IMG/VR virus record: IMGVR_UViG_2562617087_000022
DNA: 23,278 nt
DNA from: a virus
Taxonomy: Duplodnaviria > Heunggongvirae > Uroviricota > Caudoviricetes
Direction: 5' to 3' (one strand)
Part shown: positions 2,189 to 17,004 of the stretch, piece after piece
How the letters are laid out: each line of letters opens with the position of its first letter
How positions within the stretch are numbered: the stretch's first letter is position 1
The notes under the pieces: generated by a model
What the model was told of the DNA's origin: nothing
Seen by the model: the letters and a program-made list of their open reading frames with translations, nothing else
The model's database searches: none
Translations under genes and position numbers: made by a program

Positions 2189-3076
2189 TCAGGCTGCCAG
2201 ATCATCGTTTCTGATGGAAGCATAATAAGCTTTTTCTGCTTCTGCCGGAGGGATATGACCCAGCCTTCCCAGCAATCGTCGATTGTTATACCAGTCCACC
2301 CACGTGAGTGTGGCCAGTTCCACTTCTGCACGGTTTTTCCAGCTCTTACGGTGTATTACCTCCGCTTTGTAAAGACCATTGATGCTCTCCGCCATCGCGT
2401 TGTCATACGAGTCACCTGTACTCCCTGTTGATGCCAGCAGTTTTGCTTCTTTTAGTCGCTCCGTATAGGCCAGTGATATATACTGAGAACCTTTATCACT
2501 GTGATGGACTGTGCCGGACGGCCGACGGGCCCACAACGCCTGCTCCAGTGCATCCAGCACGAATGTCGTTTCCATAGACGATGAGACTCGCCACCCCACG
2601 ATACATCCGGCAAACACATCAATGATGAACGCCACATAGACGAAGCCCTGCCATGTGCTGACGTAAGTAAAATCAGCCACCCACAGCTGGTCAGGACGTT
2701 CTGCCACGAACTGACGGTTTACGCGGTCGCCTGCGGAAACGGCTTTCCGGCTGACGGTAGTACGGACCTTTTTACCCCGGAGAACACCGGCAAGTCCCAT
2801 AACCGCCATGAGGCGCGCCACTGTACATCTGGCCACCCTGATACCTTCGCGTAACAACTGGCGCCAGACTTTACGCACACCGTACACCTGATGATTTTCA
2901 TCGTATACGCGCTGTATCTCTCTCTTCAGCCAGTCATCGCGCTGAGCACGGGCACTGCGTTTATCAGGATGATGTCGCTGTTGCTGACAGTGGTAATACG
3001 TTGACGGGGCAATATGCAGTTCACTGCATACCGGTCCGACCCCGTACTGCTCACGCAGCTTATCCAGCAGCGGCAT
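2189..3076 (-). CDS. IS629 transposase OrfB (DDE integrase domain)
   Basis: 295-aa [18 protein letters not shown]...; recognised as IS629/IS1203 OrfB; a second, truncated copy is at 12118..12795. Confidence 0.9.
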   Translation of the reverse strand: MPLLDKLREQYGVGPVCSELHIAPSTYYHCQQQRHHPDKRSARAQRDDWLKREIQRVYDENHQVYGVRKVWRQLLREGIRVARCTVARLMAVMGLAGVLRGKKVRTTVSRKAVSAGDRVNRQFVAERPDQLWVADFTYVSTWQGFVYVAFIIDVFAGCIVGWRVSSSMETTFVLDALEQALWARRPSGTVHHSDKGSQYISLAYTERLKEAKLLASTGSTGDSYDNAMAESINGLYKAEVIHRKSWKNRAEVELATLTWVDWYNNRRLLGRLGHIPPAEAEKAYYASIRNDDLAA

Positions 3077-3402
3077 TATTTTTTCCAGAGGCGGTCGAAC
3101 TCCGCCTTCGCAAAATAAGCGGAAGCCTGGCGAAGGATATCGTTACTGCGGCGCAGTTCACGATTTTCACGTTCCAGCTCTTTCAGACGCTGACGTTCAG
3201 CGGTGGTGAGTCCACCATCACCACTCCCGGTATCCCGCTCATGCTGACGAACCCACACACGCAGAGTCTCTGGTGTACAGCCAATCTTTGGGGCAATGGA
3301 ACAAATTGCCGCCCATTGTGAGTCATATTCGCCCTGACTTTCCAGAACCATACGAACTGCTCGTTGACGGACCTCGGGGGAAAAACGTGTATTTTTAGTC
3401 AT
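3076..3402 (-). CDS. IS629 OrfA (HTH transposase subunit)
   Basis: 108-aa [29 protein letters not shown]...; the copy at 11792..12118 differs by one residue. Confidence 0.9.
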
Positions 3403-3456
3403 CCTGTTTACCTCTTTCTCAGGGAGTTTAGTCTCCAGGATTCCCGGGGCGGTTCA

Positions 3457-4428
3457 CTGTCTGAGCGCGAGGAGATACGAGCTGGTTTGTCAGCCAAAAT
3501 GAGCATTCGTGCGATAGCTACTGCGCTGAATCGCAGTCCTTCGACGATCTCACGTGAAGTTCAGCGTAATCGGGGCAGACGCTATTACAAAGCTGTTGAT
3601 GCTAATAACCGAGCCAACAGAATGGCGAAAAGGCCAAAACCGTGCTTACTGGATCAAAATTTACCATTGCGAAAGCTTGTTCTGGAAAAGCTGGAGATGA
3701 AATGGTCTCCAGAGCAAATATCAGGATGGTTAAGGCGAACAAAACCACGTCAAAAAACGCTGCGAATATCACCTGAGACAATTTATAAAACGCTGTACTT
3801 TCGTAGCCGTGAAGCGCTACACCACCTGAATATACAGCATCTGCGACGGTCGCATAGCCTTCGCCATGGCAGGCGTCATACCCGCAAAGGCGAAAGAGGT
3901 ACGATTAACATAGTGAACGGAACACCAATTCACGAACGTTCCCGAAATATCGATAACAGACGCTCTCTAGGGCATTGGGAGGGCGATTTAGTCTCAGGTA
4001 CAAAAAACTCTCATATAGCCACACTTGTAGACCGAAAATCACGTTATACGATCATCCTCAGACTCAGGGGCAAAGATTCTGTCTCAGTAAATCAGGCTCT
4101 TACCGACAAATTCCTGAGTTTACCGTCAGAACTCAGAAAATCACTGACATGGGACAGAGGAATGGAACTGGCCAGACATCTAGAATTTACTGTCAGCACC
4201 GGCGTTAAAGTTTACTTCTGCGATCCTCAGAGTCCTTGGCAGCGGGGAACAAATGAGAACACAAATGGGCTAATTCGGCAGTACTTTCCTAAAAAGACAT
4301 GTCTTGCCCAATATACTCAACATGAACTAGATCTGGTTGCTGCTCAGCTAAACAACAGACCGAGAAAGACACTGAAGTTCAAAACACCGAAAGAGATAAT
4401 TGAAAGGGGTGTTGCATTGACAGATTGA
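3457..4428 (+). pseudogene. insI: IS30 transposase, C-terminal portion (disrupted by IS629)
   Basis: From LSEREEIRAGLSAKMSIRAIATALNRSPSTISREV... to ...KEIIERGVALTD stop; colinear with InsI after the IS629 insertion point. Confidence 0.88.
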
Positions 4429-11791: not shown

Positions 11792-12118
11792 ATGACTAAA
11801 AATACACGTTTTTCCCCCGAGGTCCGTCAACGGGCAGTCCGTATGGTTCTGGAAAGTCAGGGCGAATATGACTCACAATGGGCGGCAATTTGTTCCATTG
11901 CCCCAAAGATTGGCTGTACACCAGAGACTCTGCGTGTGTGGGTTCGTCAGCATGAGCGGGATACCGGGGGCGGTGATGGTGGACTCACCACCGCTGAACG
12001 TCAGCGTCTGAAAGAGCTGGAACGTGAAAATCGTGAACTGCGCCGCAGTAACGATATCCTTCGCCAGGCTTCCGCTTATTTTGCGAAGGCGGAGTTCGAC
12101 CGCCTCTGGAAAAAATAA
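11792..12118 (+). CDS. IS629 OrfA (second copy)
   Basis: 108-aa ORF, one substitution relative to the copy at 3076..3402. Confidence 0.85.
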
Positions 12119-12795
12119 TGCCGCTGCTGGATAAGCTGCGTGAGCAGTACGGGGTCGGACCGGTATGCAGTGAACTGCATATTGCCCCGTCAACGTATTA
12201 CCACTGTCAGCAACAGCGACATCATCCGGATAAACGCAGTGCCCGTGCGCAGCGCGATGACTGGCTGAAGAGAGAGATACAGCGCGTATACGATGAAAAT
12301 CATCAGGTGTACGGTGTGCGTAAAGTCTGGCGCCAGTTGTTACGCGAAGGTATCAGGGTGGCCAGATGTACAGTGGCGCGCCTCATGGCGGTTATGGGAC
12401 TTGCCGGTGTTCTCCGGGGTAAAAAGGTCCGTACTACCGTCAGCCGGAAAGCCGTTTCCGCAGGCGACCGCGTAAACCGTCAGTTCGTGGCAGAACGTCC
12501 TGACCAGCTGTGGGTGGCTGATTTTACTTACGTCAGCACATGGCAGGGCTTCGTCTATGTGGCGTTCATCATTGATGTGTTTTCCGGATGTATCGTGGGG
12601 TGGCGAGTCTCATCGTCTATGGAAACGACATTCGTGCTGGATGCACTGGAGCAGGCGTTGTGGGCCCGTCGGCCGTCCGGCACAGTCCATCACAGTGATA
12701 AAGGTTCTCAGTATGTATCACTGGCCTATACGGAGCGACTAAAAGAAGCAAAACTGCTGGCATCAACAGGGAGTACAGGTGACTCGTATGACAAT
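12118..12795 (+). pseudogene. IS629 OrfB, C-terminally truncated
   Basis: Matches the first OrfB copy through ...STGSTGDSYDN, then non-homologous codons and a stop; the DDE domain is incomplete. Confidence 0.85.
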
Positions 12796-12826
12796 GTATT
12801 TTATTAGTTCACATACAATTATCAGA

Positions 12827-13141
12827 TTATTCTGGGAATAAGGTCTGAATATTCTTTTTTATTTTATAAAAATTGCATTCAACTCCGCTAGGCTGATTAG
12901 CCTGGTATGTTTCCTTGATGCTAACGGTATTGAAGGGGAGGTTGTCCTCTGGCCATTCGGCCATCCAGTAGGCAAATGCTGGGTTGCGCTTTATGAGTGC
13001 TAGCCCAGCCAGAAAGGCCGCGCGTTGCGCGCGGCTGCGTTCGGAGGCTGGCAGGCTATCGAGGTAATTGCACGCCTCCTGTTCACTCTTGACGGCGGCG
13101 GGCTTCAGATAGAAACTTATCCGTCTGGTTGGTGTCGTCAT
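12827..13141 (-). CDS. parR: ParR/StbB-like ribbon-helix-helix centromere-binding protein
   Basis: 104-aa ORF 4 nt downstream of parM; N-terminal ...DSLPASERSRAQRAAFLAGLAL... resembles R1 ParR; the C-terminal third is AT-rich and divergent. Confidence 0.65.
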   Translation of the reverse strand: MTTPTRRISFYLKPAAVKSEQEACNYLDSLPASERSRAQRAAFLAGLALIKRNPAFAYWMAEWPEDNLPFNTVSIKETYQANQPSGVECNFYKIKKNIQTLFPE

Positions 13142-13145
13142 TGGT

Positions 13146-14105
13146 TTACTCCTTGTTCATTGCGTACAACCCATTAACCAGAGCAAACTGTGGCACCCCG
13201 TCCGCGATGAAAGTCGCATTAACTCCGCAGGCTTCGCGGATAGCGGTTGCCACAATCTCCGCCCCGCCACCGACAACCATCACCCGCCCGTAACCCGAAA
13301 AAACCGCCAGCGCGCGGATCACGCGTTGTTTCAGTGTTTCTTCCTTTTCACGAATAACCGCCATCAGGCTGGCGTAATGCGCGTCATTGTGGATGTGCTG
13401 GCGCAGCCAGGCTTCATCATGGCGATGTTCGATAATGGTATTGGCGATGTGGTGACTGGTGCGCATACCGTTAGTGGCCATCACCGACAGTACGGCATCG
13501 GCCATCAGAGAAACGCCTACGTGTGGATCGCAAAACACCTGGCTGATACCTGCCAGTTGCCCCTGAACCTTTGCCACATCCAGCGTGGTTCCGCCCAAAT
13601 CCACAATCAGCAGGGATTCAAACGGACTCATGTCAGCCAGTGCCTTAAAGCCAGCAGGAATGGATTCAGGCATAACCCGTACGTTACGGATAGTGAATGC
13701 TTCGCCGTTCTGGTACTCCACCGGGCGCATGACGTTCGCTTTTTTGCGGTTGATGTTGGCCATGTCCGGCTGTGCGTTTGTATCGAAATACTCGCTCAGT
13801 GGCAGGGTGACAACCACATCCACTTCCTGTGGTGTGATGCCTGATTTGACCAGCGCGTGATGAATGGCAATTACATTCACATCGCTGTACTGGTATTGCG
13901 TGTCGGTCGTCTGGACAAAGCGATCGCTGACCGGATCAAAACCATAGCGCACGCCATCAAGCATGTAGTTCGCGGGCTGCGTGCCACCGAATGGCGCAGA
14001 CCATTCCGACTTGAAGCTGTTCGGGCTGATGGCGTTGCGGCGTTCGCCGTTCTCAGTCCATGCCAGCTTGATGTTGGTGGAGCCGTCGTCGATACAAATT
14101 TTCAT
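13146..14105 (-). CDS. parM: ParM/StbA actin-like plasmid segregation ATPase
   Basis: 319-aa ORF; clear colinear similarity to R1 ParM (MK.CIDDGSTNIKL..., ...YSDVNVIAIHHAL..., ...VMPESIPAG..., ...DLGGTTLD..., ...GGGAEI...). Confidence 0.9.
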   Translation of the reverse strand: MKICIDDGSTNIKLAWTENGERRNAISPNSFKSEWSAPFGGTQPANYMLDGVRYGFDPVSDRFVQTTDTQYQYSDVNVIAIHHALVKSGITPQEVDVVVTLPLSEYFDTNAQPDMANINRKKANVMRPVEYQNGEAFTIRNVRVMPESIPAGFKALADMSPFESLLIVDLGGTTLDVAKVQGQLAGISQVFCDPHVGVSLMADAVLSVMATNGMRTSHHIANTIIEHRHDEAWLRQHIHNDAHYASLMAVIREKEETLKQRVIRALAVFSGYGRVMVVGGGAEIVATAIREACGVNATFIADGVPQFALVNGLYAMNKE

Positions 14106-14133
14106 GTCGCTTTTCCTTATGTTGATTAATTAA

Positions 14134-14252
14134 TCGGTTACAGGATTTTTAAATCCCGCTTTTGCCTGTTTTGTGCGCGCTTCATATATCGCGGCGCGTT
14201 TTTTGCTCATTTACGGGATTTGTGAGTCCCGTTTCTGTCTGTTTTTTGTTTC
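14134..14252. repeat. Two imperfect direct repeats of about 36 bp (iteron-like), straddling the 3' end of gene A upstream of parM
   Basis: ACAGGATTTTTAAATCCCGCTTTTGCCTGTTTTGTG (14134-) and ACGGGATTTGTGAGTCCCGTTTCTGTCTGTTTTTTG (14213-); each has an internal short inverted repeat. Confidence 0.35.
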
Positions 14253-17004
14253 CACTGGTCAGGCCACCCCGCAGCAGGTCTGCTTTGCGGCTGGCGCGTT
14301 CAGTGGTTTCACTGATTCTCTGTGCGTGCTCTGCGTCGCGGATGGCGCGCAGCATGTCAGAAAGCACGGTAACGGGTGTTTTCATGGTGTTCTGGTCCTG
14401 CTGAAGTGTGGATGCCAGGCGTGCGGCGGCTTCAGGGTCTGATGCCCCCAGCTGTGCCAGATAGCTGGCGACCGGGTTATGGCGGATCTCCGTGCTGCTT
14501 ACGCCATGATTACGGCTCAGGCGCTGCCAGAGCTGCGTGATTCGGCTGTCCGGGCGGGTATCCGGTTTGCGTACAATTTCAAATCCCTGCGGTGCAATGA
14601 TGCTGCCGTCAACGTACAGACTGCCGCCCCGTAACAGGTGCTGCATCTGTTGTTCACCGATATGCAGGCCGAGAGATTCAGCAGACTCCCGCCATTCTTT
14701 AGCGAGTAATTCGTGGTTATCAGGCAAAGGCCGCTGCTGTTTGCGGCTCTGTGTCCAGCTCTGCATTTCATCACTGCTGTTTTTTGCCTGTTTGTCACGA
14801 AGCGAACGCATCAGCGCCCGGCGTTCGTGCCGTTTCAGTGAGCGCATCCATTCGTTCACGTCAACGCCGTCAGGAAGCTGCGGCCACGGTGCTGGCCGTT
14901 CTTCCGGCTGTTCTGTCCCGTTGTTGTCCGTTTCCTGTACACGGGGACAGTTATTGCCACGAGTCCAAGGGGCGGCAGGGCCGCCCTGAAGGTCAAAACC
15001 ATTTTCGCGGGCGCTGTCTTCTACTCCCGGTTTACGTCTTACCAGCTTCCAGTTATCCGGGTGCGTGCACACACGGGAGGATTCCCCGATGAGTGGTGAC
15101 CAGATCCCGTAAATCTGTACGCTCTGTTCGCCGTAATCGTTCAGCTCATCTGCGAGGTCGTAGGCGGTGCGAATCAGGTAGTCCTTGCGTGGAACAAGTA
15201 CGCCTCCCTGTTTCTCAATGTAGGTGGTAAAACATCCGGCATCAGCGGCAGCAAGAACCGCATCCATTGCGTCATCCTTCAGCCGTTGCGGGCCTTCCGG
15301 GTTGCGTGCCATCTGGCTGGCAAGGCGACGCAGTTCACGCCACACCTGACGGGAGGGGATGCCAAAGAACTGGAACTGGCGGACCCGGTGAAGGCGCGCC
15401 CAGCCAATGGCGCGTTCCACGCTCTCGGTCATTGATTTTCCGGTTTCGTGGTCAACGCGTGGTTTGCCTGTTTTCGGGTCGATGCCATCCACGGCGCGGC
15501 TGTCCAGGTTTTTTCCGATGTAGGTGGCGATGTAGCTGGTTGGCGTGCCTTTTGAGCCGTCGACATACTCCGCCTTAAAGCGCGGAGTAATATCATCGCC
15601 CAGCTCGTGACGATCTTCCTGAATGGCAATATCGCGGGTGTGGGACACAATGGTGTCGATTTCTTCCGGATGAGCAAAGACCATCATATGCCAGTGCACG
15701 GTGCCGTCATGGTGAGGCTCCACCGTGCGGATGCCATACCAGCGCAGGCCGTCGCGGTTCAGTTTCTTGCGGACCGCCGCAAAAAACGTGTTAACCAGGT
15801 AATCGCTGGAGTCGCGCATGGTGGCCCCGTTCCATTTGGGATTCGGATGACCGTTCTCTGTTGTAGCGTGGTATTTTGACGGGCAGGTGACAGTCAGAAA
15901 CACCGCTTTGTCGCCACGGGCTTCGGCCAGAAGTTCCAGCCCCTTCATGGTGGCCATCATTTCTGCCTTACGGTGAACCGGGTTACTTACTCCCGCGTAA
16001 TACACTGTCTCGAGATCAATCGTGAACCCGTCTTCGTTTTCCAGCATGAAACTTTTCAGGAAATCGCGTGTTTTCTCGCGCTGTGCGCGAAACTCGCTTA
16101 ACGCGTCCTGGCTCAGATAGGGCGATGTTTTTCTGGAAACCAGACAGGCGGCGCGGAGTTGTTCTTCTCTCCACTCGCAACGTAACAGCCACAGTTTGCG
16201 TTTCCACCATTCCGCACAGGTCAGGCGAAGGATTGCGCCCGGCAGCAGCTCCGTGTCCGGTTCGTTCCTCCGGTCTTTGTCTGTTGTCAGTGCGTCATAA
16301 TGTGGAGGCATGGCGTGCAGGTGTAACGCCATGCGGGCCAGCATCTGATACGCCTTCAGCGTTACATCCATGGTCAGTTCGCCATCGGTCGCGCCAAAGC
16401 CATCGCAGAGTTTTTCGAAGGTGCTGCTGAACATCGCCGCCGTCATGGTGGCCAGCGTCTGTATCTGGTGTTTGTTGAGCTGCGGCAGGTAAAGCAAATC
16501 GTCCAGGCGTTCGCGTCCGGCAAGGGAGCGATAACCCTGTGTCAGCCAGCGGTGATCGGTGCGCTCCAGACGTTCGAATATTTTGCGCAGGTTTCCGCGC
16601 GCGTAGCGTTCAGCCTGCCAGCTCTTTTTGCCTTTCTGACGATCGGCTTCCTGTTTTTTGCGCAGGAAGGAGAGGTGGCGAATAAGCGGATCGCGCAGAT
16701 AGGACGGCAGCAGGCGCAGCGAGGCCATGGCTTCATCCACCGCACCGCGTGCCTGTTTTCTGGCGTCTCCTGCCAGTGTGATGGTTTTGTCCTGTTTTTC
16801 CTGTGCGTCCAGGCTTTTATTAATCAGGTTGCCCAGCGGCGTTGCGGAGAACGCCGCATCAGCCATTTCCTGGCGGCGCTCGTTCTCTACCCGGTAGGCA
16901 TCCAGCCAGGAGGAAAGCGCGGATTCAGGAGCGGGGATCCCCGTTCCTTCACGCCCCACTGCGTGGCGCGGTTGTTGCCAGTCCCTGATGTACTCTGCCG
17001 TCAT
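14182..17004 (-). CDS. Rolling-circle replication initiation endonuclease (P2 gpA-like)
   Basis: 940-aa ORF; HUH-type motif ...EPHHDGTVHWHMMVF... and tyrosine motif ...TSYIATYIGKNL... typical of P2/186 A proteins. Confidence 0.9.
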   Translation of the reverse strand: MTAEYIRDWQQPRHAVGREGTGIPAPESALSSWLDAYRVENERRQEMADAAFSATPLGNLINKSLDAQEKQDKTITLAGDARKQARGAVDEAMASLRLLPSYLRDPLIRHLSFLRKKQEADRQKGKKSWQAERYARGNLRKIFERLERTDHRWLTQGYRSLAGRERLDDLLYLPQLNKHQIQTLATMTAAMFSSTFEKLCDGFGATDGELTMDVTLKAYQMLARMALHLHAMPPHYDALTTDKDRRNEPDTELLPGAILRLTCAEWWKRKLWLLRCEWREEQLRAACLVSRKTSPYLSQDALSEFRAQREKTRDFLKSFMLENEDGFTIDLETVYYAGVSNPVHRKAEMMATMKGLELLAEARGDKAVFLTVTCPSKYHATTENGHPNPKWNGATMRDSSDYLVNTFFAAVRKKLNRDGLRWYGIRTVEPHHDGTVHWHMMVFAHPEEIDTIVSHTRDIAIQEDRHELGDDITPRFKAEYVDGSKGTPTSYIATYIGKNLDSRAVDGIDPKTGKPRVDHETGKSMTESVERAIGWARLHRVRQFQFFGIPSRQVWRELRRLASQMARNPEGPQRLKDDAMDAVLAAADAGCFTTYIEKQGGVLVPRKDYLIRTAYDLADELNDYGEQSVQIYGIWSPLIGESSRVCTHPDNWKLVRRKPGVEDSARENGFDLQGGPAAPWTRGNNCPRVQETDNNGTEQPEERPAPWPQLPDGVDVNEWMRSLKRHERRALMRSLRDKQAKNSSDEMQSWTQSRKQQRPLPDNHELLAKEWRESAESLGLHIGEQQMQHLLRGGSLYVDGSIIAPQGFEIVRKPDTRPDSRITQLWQRLSRNHGVSSTEIRHNPVASYLAQLGASDPEAAARLASTLQQDQNTMKTPVTVLSDMLRAIRDAEHAQRISETTERASRKADLLRGGLTSGNKKQTETGLTNPVNEQKTRRDI

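Follow-up and report, generated by a model that had tools for sequence, protein, structure and literature searches.

A Candidate Two-Box ParR Binding Site Upstream of parM in P88-Like Prophages of the P2 Family

In our study, we examined a pair of imperfect direct repeats upstream of the parM gene in the virus record IMGVR_UViG_2562617087_000022. The whole stretch of 23,278 nucleotides is called the window here, and it was identified as a P88-type P2-family prophage (genus Xuanwuvirus). The repeats are located where gene A, encoding the rolling-circle replication endonuclease, meets the parM and parR genes, and they are probably the ParR binding site of this par cassette, that is, a parC-type operator and a probable centromere. 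The core of the repeats, the spacing of the two copies and their distance from parM were found to be conserved, the type of repeat follows ParR and not A, and the element is distinct from the nick site of the replication origin. The ParMRC cassette is a textbook plasmid segregation machine. In the P88-like (Xuanwuvirus) prophages, a type II cassette of the order parC-parM-parR would occupy the accessory region downstream of A. We infer ParR binding, repression and centromere activity from the comparison of sequences. An earlier reading, made from the letters of the window only (the sequence-only reading), had offered a parC-like centromere or a promoter for parM as the role of this region. The centromere/operator role is favoured by the position, the spacing of 72–73 bp and the co-variation with ParR, whereas no promoter was located.

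The Repeat Pair and Its Dyad Boxes

The repeat search returned a single direct-repeat family, consisting of two 38-nt direct repeats at nucleotides 14138–14175 and 14211–14248, which match at 30 of 38 positions (79%) and are 73 bp apart from start to start. The two imperfect repeats of the sequence-only reading, with 28 matches in 36 positions, fall within this pair and are real. In 1000 dinucleotide-preserving shuffles of nucleotides 13800–14600, the best 38-mer repeat at offsets of 38–200 scored 21.9 ± 1.0 on average and 28 at most, so that a score of 30 was never reached; the same result was obtained for nucleotides 14100–14300. The pair is also the only one in the window in which 38-mers at these offsets share 28 or more matches. 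Since the shuffles preserve the composition, the T-richness of the plus strand does not explain the repeat, and a chance similarity of T-rich sequence, which had been named as a possible source of the likeness, is excluded.

On the gene-sense (minus) strand, the copy distal to parM reads CAAAAAACAGACAGAAACGGGACTCACAAATCCCGTAA and the proximal copy reads CACAAAACAGGCAAAAGCGGGATTTAAAAATCCTGTAA. Each copy contains an inverted repeat, which on the same strand is CGGGACTCACAAATCCCG in the distal and CGGGATTTAAAAATCCTG in the proximal copy. The short internal inverted repeats that had been noticed earlier were thus confirmed as CRGGA-N8-TCCYG dyads, and perfect matches to this pattern were found exactly twice in the whole window, at nucleotides 14141–14158 and 14214–14231.

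The distal (parM-upstream) copy (14211–14248, minus strand) is located within the last 22 codons of A, and the C-terminus of A across it reads ...KKQTETGLTNPVNEQKTRRDI up to the stop codon. It contains the distal dyad box CGGGA-N8-TCCCG (14214–14231), the proposed ParR box 1, with GGG-N10-CCC at 14215–14230, corresponding to positions −125 to −110 from the parM ATG. The spacer between the repeats has 35 nucleotides (14176–14210, minus strand) and holds the A stop codon (14182–14184) and a GC-rich CGCGC...GATATAT...GCGCG segment. The proximal copy (14138–14175, minus strand) is located in the 76-bp intergenic spacer between A and parM and contains the proximal dyad box CGGGA-N8-TCCTG (14141–14158, −53 to −36 from the parM ATG), the proposed ParR box 2. 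The second half of this box has CCT in the window and CCC in most of the E. coli relatives. The earlier placement of one copy in the 3' end of A and of the other upstream of parM holds, and the genes had been assigned correctly.

Conservation of the Boxes, ParR Type and Gene A

Since the close relatives of the window are near-identical, diverged ParM homologues were sought and their genomic contexts were read. The parMR genes were found downstream of A in P2-family prophages of Hafnia (L085, ParM 61% identical), Plesiomonas (L088, 62%), Serratia (L089, 58%), Enterobacter (L090, 54%; also L097 and L099) and a Hafnia metagenome-assembled genome (L102, 94%). The loci L092 and L093 of the plasmid or integrative and conjugative element (ICE) type and the plasmid NR1 (L100) served as outgroups. 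The ParM scan of genome contigs yielded only three near-identical loci, and the scans of viral contigs yielded no locus with the Hafnia ParM and one locus with the Plesiomonas ParM.

The conserved core was found to be a pair of GGG-N10-CCC boxes, which is present in four lineages. From the parM ATG, the distal and proximal boxes are at −125 and −52 in the E. coli type (window and L095), at −124 and −51 in L102, at −128 and −55 in Hafnia L085, and at −131 and −59 in Plesiomonas. The spacing is 73 bp in the first three and 72 bp in Plesiomonas, and it was kept though ParM is only about 60–62% identical among three of these lineages. Outside the boxes, the repeat units are about 37% identical between lineages. 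Of the E. coli-type loci, 64 were compared; 61 share the positions of both boxes, and none of these 61 varies in the GG and CC doublets. Where the boxes are commonly polymorphic (minor allele above 10%), the change is within the N8 spacer or affects the symmetric outer R/Y positions, giving CAGG or CCTG.

When GGG/CCC is excluded, the two units of a lineage are 75% identical in the E. coli type, 69% in L102, and 37.5% in both Hafnia L085 and Plesiomonas. As the last value equals the background between lineages, the A-rich arm belongs to the E. coli/L102 lineage only. The 36-bp unit of the sequence-only reading therefore stands in so far as the repeats are present, whereas the conserved unit is the dyad box of 16–18 bp, with the A-rich arm restricted to the E. 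coli type. A strong concerted evolution of the whole 38-nt unit was rejected on the same values, as it is only partial.

One of the 64 loci, the IMG/VR E. coli prophage L025, contains a natural 73-bp deletion, which fuses the distal left arm to the proximal box. In the region upstream of parM that is equivalent to nucleotides 14138–14248 of the window, it keeps a single box, and its A then ends with ...KKQTKTGFKNPVTD before the stop codon. The deletion indicates that the two repeat copies recombine, as would be possible if the repeats were a functionless scar of tandem duplication or a chance feature of A/T-rich sequence. Such an origin is extremely improbable, since it is refuted by the shuffles, none of which attained the observed score, and by the retention across lineages of the boxes and their spacing where the flanks have diverged to about 37% identity.

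The ParR strand TRR[IV]SFYL was found in all four box-bearing lineages. In the loci with the strand NRKISFYL (Serratia L089 and Enterobacter L090, L097, and L099), the GGG-N10-CCC box is absent in four of four, and an inverted repeat of about 19 bp, GGGAACGAtATAGAAAAAT ... ATTTTTCTgTTTCGTTCCC, with arms about 27–30 bp apart, is present next to parM. The NRKISFYL-type ParR presumably has its cognate site in this inverted repeat. At nucleotides 4370–4480 of L089 and 4385–4470 of L090, and also in L097 and L099, the inverted repeat surrounds a small GC hairpin and precedes a TTTAAACGGC palindrome. The plasmid/ICE-type loci L092 and L093, with the strand TRRKI[NM]FYL, contain 11-bp TCTC iterons. 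Three types of ParR N-terminal strand thus correspond to three types of repeat among the loci compared. Within E. coli, no evident association was found between the variants of the box spacer and the ParR alleles; the alleles form a mosaic, and the recognition strand does not vary.

The alignment of homologues that had been suggested along with the sequence-only reading showed that, across the lineages of P2-family prophages, the repeats co-vary with parMR and not with A. The A protein of the E. coli type is 52.5% identical to that of Plesiomonas, 46.6% to that of Serratia, and 32.3% to that of Hafnia; Plesiomonas and Hafnia share its box type and Serratia does not. The A proteins of Serratia and Enterobacter are only 36.6% identical, yet the two have a common type of inverted repeat, and their ParR N-termini are 90% identical. 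Judged from these identities, the box type is discordant with the phylogeny of A. In Hafnia L085, an open reading frame (ORF) of 167 aa is present between A and parM, and the boxes stay at parM, about 420–510 bp past the end of A. Similarly, two other genes separate A from parMR in L090, L097, and L099, where the inverted repeat remains beside parM.

The distal box is read differently in each lineage. The A gene of E. coli crosses it as ACG GGA CTC ..., with the stop 27 nt later; the upstream ORF of L102 reads CGG GAT TCA TGA, with the stop inside the box; that of Plesiomonas reads GCG GGA CAA ..., with the stop 9 nt after; and the 167-aa ORF of Hafnia reads TAT GGG ATT ... and continues into the proximal box. 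Since the frames and stops differ in this way, the conservation is at the level of DNA. The tail of A is overprinted on the DNA element and looks like a by-product, and the dual constraint that had been proposed for the repeat embedded in A is weak. A protein-level repeat was also considered, as the A tail KQTETGLTNPV resembles KQAKAGFKNPV, encoded by the proximal copy in another frame; it was rejected, the frames being different among lineages. An ORF of 26 aa from nucleotide 14210 to 14130 (minus strand; MSKKRAAIYEARTKQAKAGFKNPVTD), which runs from the A tail through the spacer and the proximal repeat, is absent in Plesiomonas and Hafnia and is probably spurious.

Replication, RNA and Partition as Roles of the Element

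In phage P2, the replication origin is located inside A, and the nick site is annotated at nucleotide 29892 of NC_001895 with the sequence GCCGCGCC^TCGGAGTCCTGTCAATAACT. As the distal repeat is within A in E. coli, L102, and Plesiomonas, the repeats could be accessory binding sites of the A protein, belonging to an origin in the 3' part of A, and an association with the origin had been the alternative in the sequence-only reading. The nick sequence of the P2 A protein, written GCGCC^TCGGAGTCCTGTCAATAAC, is not present in the repeats. The predicted nick-site region of the window was found inside A at nucleotides 14949–14979 (minus strand), where CCTGCCGCCCCTTGGACTCGTGGCAATAACT (...GGACTCGTGGCAATAACT) has 23 of 31 DNA matches to P2; it is not part of the repeat element, lies about 700 nt upstream of it and has no sequence in common with it. 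Homologues of the nick site were found in all five A genes (window, Hafnia, Plesiomonas, Serratia, and Enterobacter), 336–798 nt before the stop codons, so the distance from nick site to boxes is not fixed. At the DNA level, the predicted nick site is kept even between A genes whose proteins share only about 30% identity. The Hafnia L085 boxes are located beyond the end of A. The Serratia A, 47–52% identical to the A of E. coli and Plesiomonas, is without boxes, whereas the Hafnia A, only 32% identical, has them. The P2 origin is thus like the distal repeat in its place in the 3' part of A and differs from it in sequence and in being linked to A, unlike the repeats. The association with the origin is unsupported; as regards the nick site it is refuted, and a role as accessory sites is very unlikely.

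A role of the hairpins in RNA or transcription was also considered, in which they would act as antisense (plus-strand) intrinsic terminators or, between A and parM, would affect the stability or processing of the RNA. The plus strand of nucleotides 14213–14232 was flagged as terminator-like, with a hairpin and then a T-rich tail, and the box hairpins of E. coli, with 6–8 bp, are stable (−8.7 to −11 kcal/mol). However, the number of terminator-like sites was no higher than in shuffles (2 vs. 1.1 ± 1.4 expected), and the sense strand is without a U-run after the hairpins. The pattern of stem and T-tail was found on the antisense strand only and in the E. coli type only. Hafnia L085 and Plesiomonas contain just a GGG/CCC stem of 3–4 bp with a 10-nt loop and no T-tail. 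On the sense strand, this stem has −3.3 to −4.9 kcal/mol, and one antisense site reaches −8.2 kcal/mol. No Rfam family matched the region. We rejected the terminator or RNA hairpin on the unconserved stems, the background level of the scan and the Rfam result, and consider such a role very improbable. The spaced dyad is conserved and the stem is not, which is the signature of a double-stranded DNA site read by a symmetric protein.

The comparison with known partition systems bears on the ParR binding site directly. The parC of plasmid R1 is an intrinsically curved region of 159 bp, in which two sets of five 11-bp iterons surround the promoter segment of 39 bp, and each iteron is bound by about one ParR dimer (PMC2241845). 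The NR1 sequence was found to contain iterons of an A-run plus CCC (AAACAAAACCC, AAAAACAACCC, and others) and the leader CATAAGGAG. The window element and the R1/NR1 parC are both located immediately upstream of parM-parR, and the ParR proteins belong to the same Pfam family, PF10784. The strand is A-rich in both, with 45% A and 14% T in the window and 51% and 12% in R1. The 10.5-bp periodicity of AA has a power of 2.09 in the window and 2.44 in the R1 parC; in shuffles of the window it was 0.54 ± 0.30, and 0.2% of the shuffles reached 2.09. This periodicity was significant also in L102 and Serratia and not in Hafnia L085 and Plesiomonas. The 3' halves of the window boxes (AAATCCC or AAAACCC) are similar to the A-run plus CCC motifs, and the window leader CATAAGGAA has the CATAAGGA leader in common with NR1. 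The layout of arm, 35-bp spacer and arm, 111 bp in total, is a smaller-scale parallel to R1, in which the repeat clusters are on either side of the 39-bp central segment.

The two systems differ in several respects. R1 contains ten direct 11-bp iterons over 159 bp, whereas the window contains two dyad boxes of 16–18 bp within 111 bp; discrete 11-bp iterons could not be delimited in the window region, and the two dyad boxes were the only clear units. The central promoter of R1 is mapped and none was identifiable in the window. The gene that precedes the window element overlaps the distal box with its 3' end, and the system is present on an integrating P2-family phage, whereas R1 is a plasmid. 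The repeats of Serratia and Enterobacter belong to the same cassette and phage region and are directly upstream of parM, and their left edge ACAGGCAAAAACGGGAAC resembles the proximal arm ACAGGCAAAAGCGGGATT of the window; they differ in having a single inverted repeat of about 19 bp with an NRKISFYL ParR, in contrast to two direct dyad boxes. The repeat architecture thus varies among the parMR loci compared, with R1-type A-run iterons, TCTC iterons, an inverted repeat or GGG-N10-CCC boxes. As in a parC, the window element is in cis and directly upstream of parM-parR, the cassette encodes an adaptor of the ParR family, and the repeat type co-varies with the ParR strand.

The ribbon-helix-helix N-terminal domain of the pB171 ParR is known, and this protein binds repeats upstream of parM. 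Its sequence similarity to the window ParR is marginal: residues 6–58 of the window ParR match pB171 StbB/ParR (PDB 2jd3) weakly (E 0.012), and this was the only solved structure matched. Residues 1–63 are 39.7% identical to the parR-gene product of NR1 (stbB in the annotation of related plasmids). The window ParR was assigned to the ribbon-helix-helix adaptors through Pfam and the weak PDB match.

In the working model, each repeat provides one dyad box, GGG-N10-CCC, and in the E. coli lineage the boxes are surrounded by A-tracts with a phase of 10.5 bp, similar to those of the curved R1 parC. The distance of 73 bp is about seven helical turns, which places both boxes on one side of the helix. 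The phage ParR would bind as dimers and recognise the boxes through its N-terminal strand TRRISFYL. The ParR-DNA complex may then autoregulate the expression of parMR and may cap ParM filaments, which would push the copies of the phage DNA apart when these are extrachromosomal.

Several observations weigh against this model. P2-family phages integrate into the chromosome, so the need for a centromere is not obvious. No sigma-70 promoter above the scan threshold was found on either strand of nucleotides 13900–14500, which leaves the autoregulation without a defined target. Only two boxes are present compared with the ten iterons of the R1 parC, and they could be a simple operator. In addition, L025 has lost one box, the O157:H7 prophage of the window is defective and has CCT in its proximal box, Hafnia L085 and Plesiomonas have neither the long 38-nt arms nor the A-tract phasing, and the lineages that link the boxes to ParR are few.

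Some of these points fit an operator without centromere function, by which ParR would repress or modulate parMR or the read-through from A. In that case, an integrating phage would be carrying a plasmid relic that is decaying or has been repurposed. The number of boxes, the lack of a sigma-70-type promoter in the scanned region and the single-box variant are consistent with it, and so are the presence of an integrase in the phage and its chromosomal location at 1533 of 1535 places. On the other side, ParM is intact, with 93–99% identity over thousands of sequences, the tail (A/T)(L/F)FPE of ParR is retained among hypervariable alleles, and the cassette is kept in at least four diverged prophage lineages, all of which speaks for selection acting on the complete ParMRC machine. 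The two boxes at seven helical turns and the R1-like phasing of A-tracts also fit a higher-order complex. An operator only is therefore unlikely, and a ParR site serving as operator and probable centromere is preferred.

For the transcription of the cassette, only weak promoter-like pairs were found, one in the spacer (ATGAGC-17-TATATG) and one that overlaps the proximal box (TTTAAA-17-ATTAAT), and parMR may be largely transcribed by read-through from A. The octamer TTAATCAA (14122–14129, minus strand) is located 17–24 nt 5' of the parM ATG and just upstream of the ribosome-binding site. It was kept in the window, L095, Hafnia L085, and Plesiomonas L088 despite unconserved surrounding DNA, and L102 has TTAATAAA in its place; it is possibly part of a −10 region. 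The ribosome-binding site of parM is AAGGA (14114–14118, minus strand), and its CATAAGGA context is the one common to the parM leader of NR1.

The P88-Like Prophages and Their par Cassette

The region of nucleotides 12800–14700 matches many E. coli O157:H7 chromosomes at 100% and phage P88 and its relatives at 96–98% identity. It was found in 1372 of 5426 complete E. coli genomes (about 25%). Gene A (14182–17004, minus strand) encodes 940 aa and belongs to the Pfam family Phage_GPA (E 2e-131), with its 3' tail overlapping the distal repeat. The parM gene (13146–14105, minus strand) encodes an actin-like segregation ATPase of 319 aa, with the StbA_N and ParM C-terminal domains (PF06406 and PF21523; E 2e-82 and 4e-69), and is about 52% identical to the ParM of plasmids. 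The parR gene (12827–13141, minus strand) encodes a centromere-binding adaptor of 104 aa of the Plasmid_stab_B family (PF10784, E 8e-29), with the N-terminal strand TRRISFYLKP.

The C-terminal ~140 residues of A (nucleotides 14182–14800, the 3' third of A) were found only in P88-like phages, and no counterpart of this extension was present in the P2, Klebsiella, Yersinia, and Salmonella P2-like A proteins of the phage collection. The C-terminal half of ParR is hypervariable in the E. coli P88-like prophages, with more than 30 alleles that are 52–98% identical. Two parts of the protein stay constant, TRRISFYLKP as the N-terminal strand and (A/T)(L/F)FPE as the extreme tail. This pattern suggests a diversifying or mosaic evolution of the ParR linker region.

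The window prophage is defective, as the head, baseplate, lysis, terminase, and portal genes of P88, located in the interval between the tail cluster and parR, are missing. Transposase genes of the IS3 family were found at nucleotides 2189–3402 (minus strand) and 11792–12807 (plus strand), the orfB of the latter having 229 aa vs. 295 aa in the other, and an IS30-like transposase is present at nucleotides 3364–4428. The parR gene adjoins an insertion sequence in the window, and A, parM, and parR are still intact.

The automated annotation already names ParM and a 'partitioning/stability' protein in these prophages. In the literature, no paper was found on the parMR cassette or the cis site of P88, Xuanwuvirus, or CP-933T. 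Among the PLSDB plasmids, no ParR more than about 41% identical was found except in integrated or whole P88-like genomes. One record of a 34,461-bp circular E. coli "plasmid" (NZ_CP148288.1, L104) was found to be a complete P88-like phage genome, with the integrase, cox, A, parM, parR, head, tail, and lysis genes. In at least one case, the assembly of a P88-like phage has thus given a circle outside the chromosome.

The element of the window is notable for being compact, built of two dyad boxes and borne by a phage. The ParMRC cassette is stable and intact in an integrating P2-family prophage of E. coli and in relatives from Hafnia, Plesiomonas, Serratia, and Enterobacter. For the annotation of these prophages, the rule would be that the element accompanies parMR and that the upstream gene has its final codons overprinted on it. 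The located cis site, with its two boxes of 16–18 bp, gives a handle for asking of what use the cassette is to the phage, and the compact two-box architecture would widen the known range of type II centromeres. We suggest, tentatively and as a rather doubtful possibility, that P88-like phages, which integrate and replicate by rolling circle, carry a fully functional and unusually minimal type II centromere of two boxes and that ParM filaments actively segregate or position the extrachromosomal phage genome. If so, the phage could be extrachromosomal during lytic replication or in a plasmid-like carrier state, be it transient or stable, and a hidden class of phage-plasmid-like elements would be present in about 25% of the complete E. 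coli genomes.

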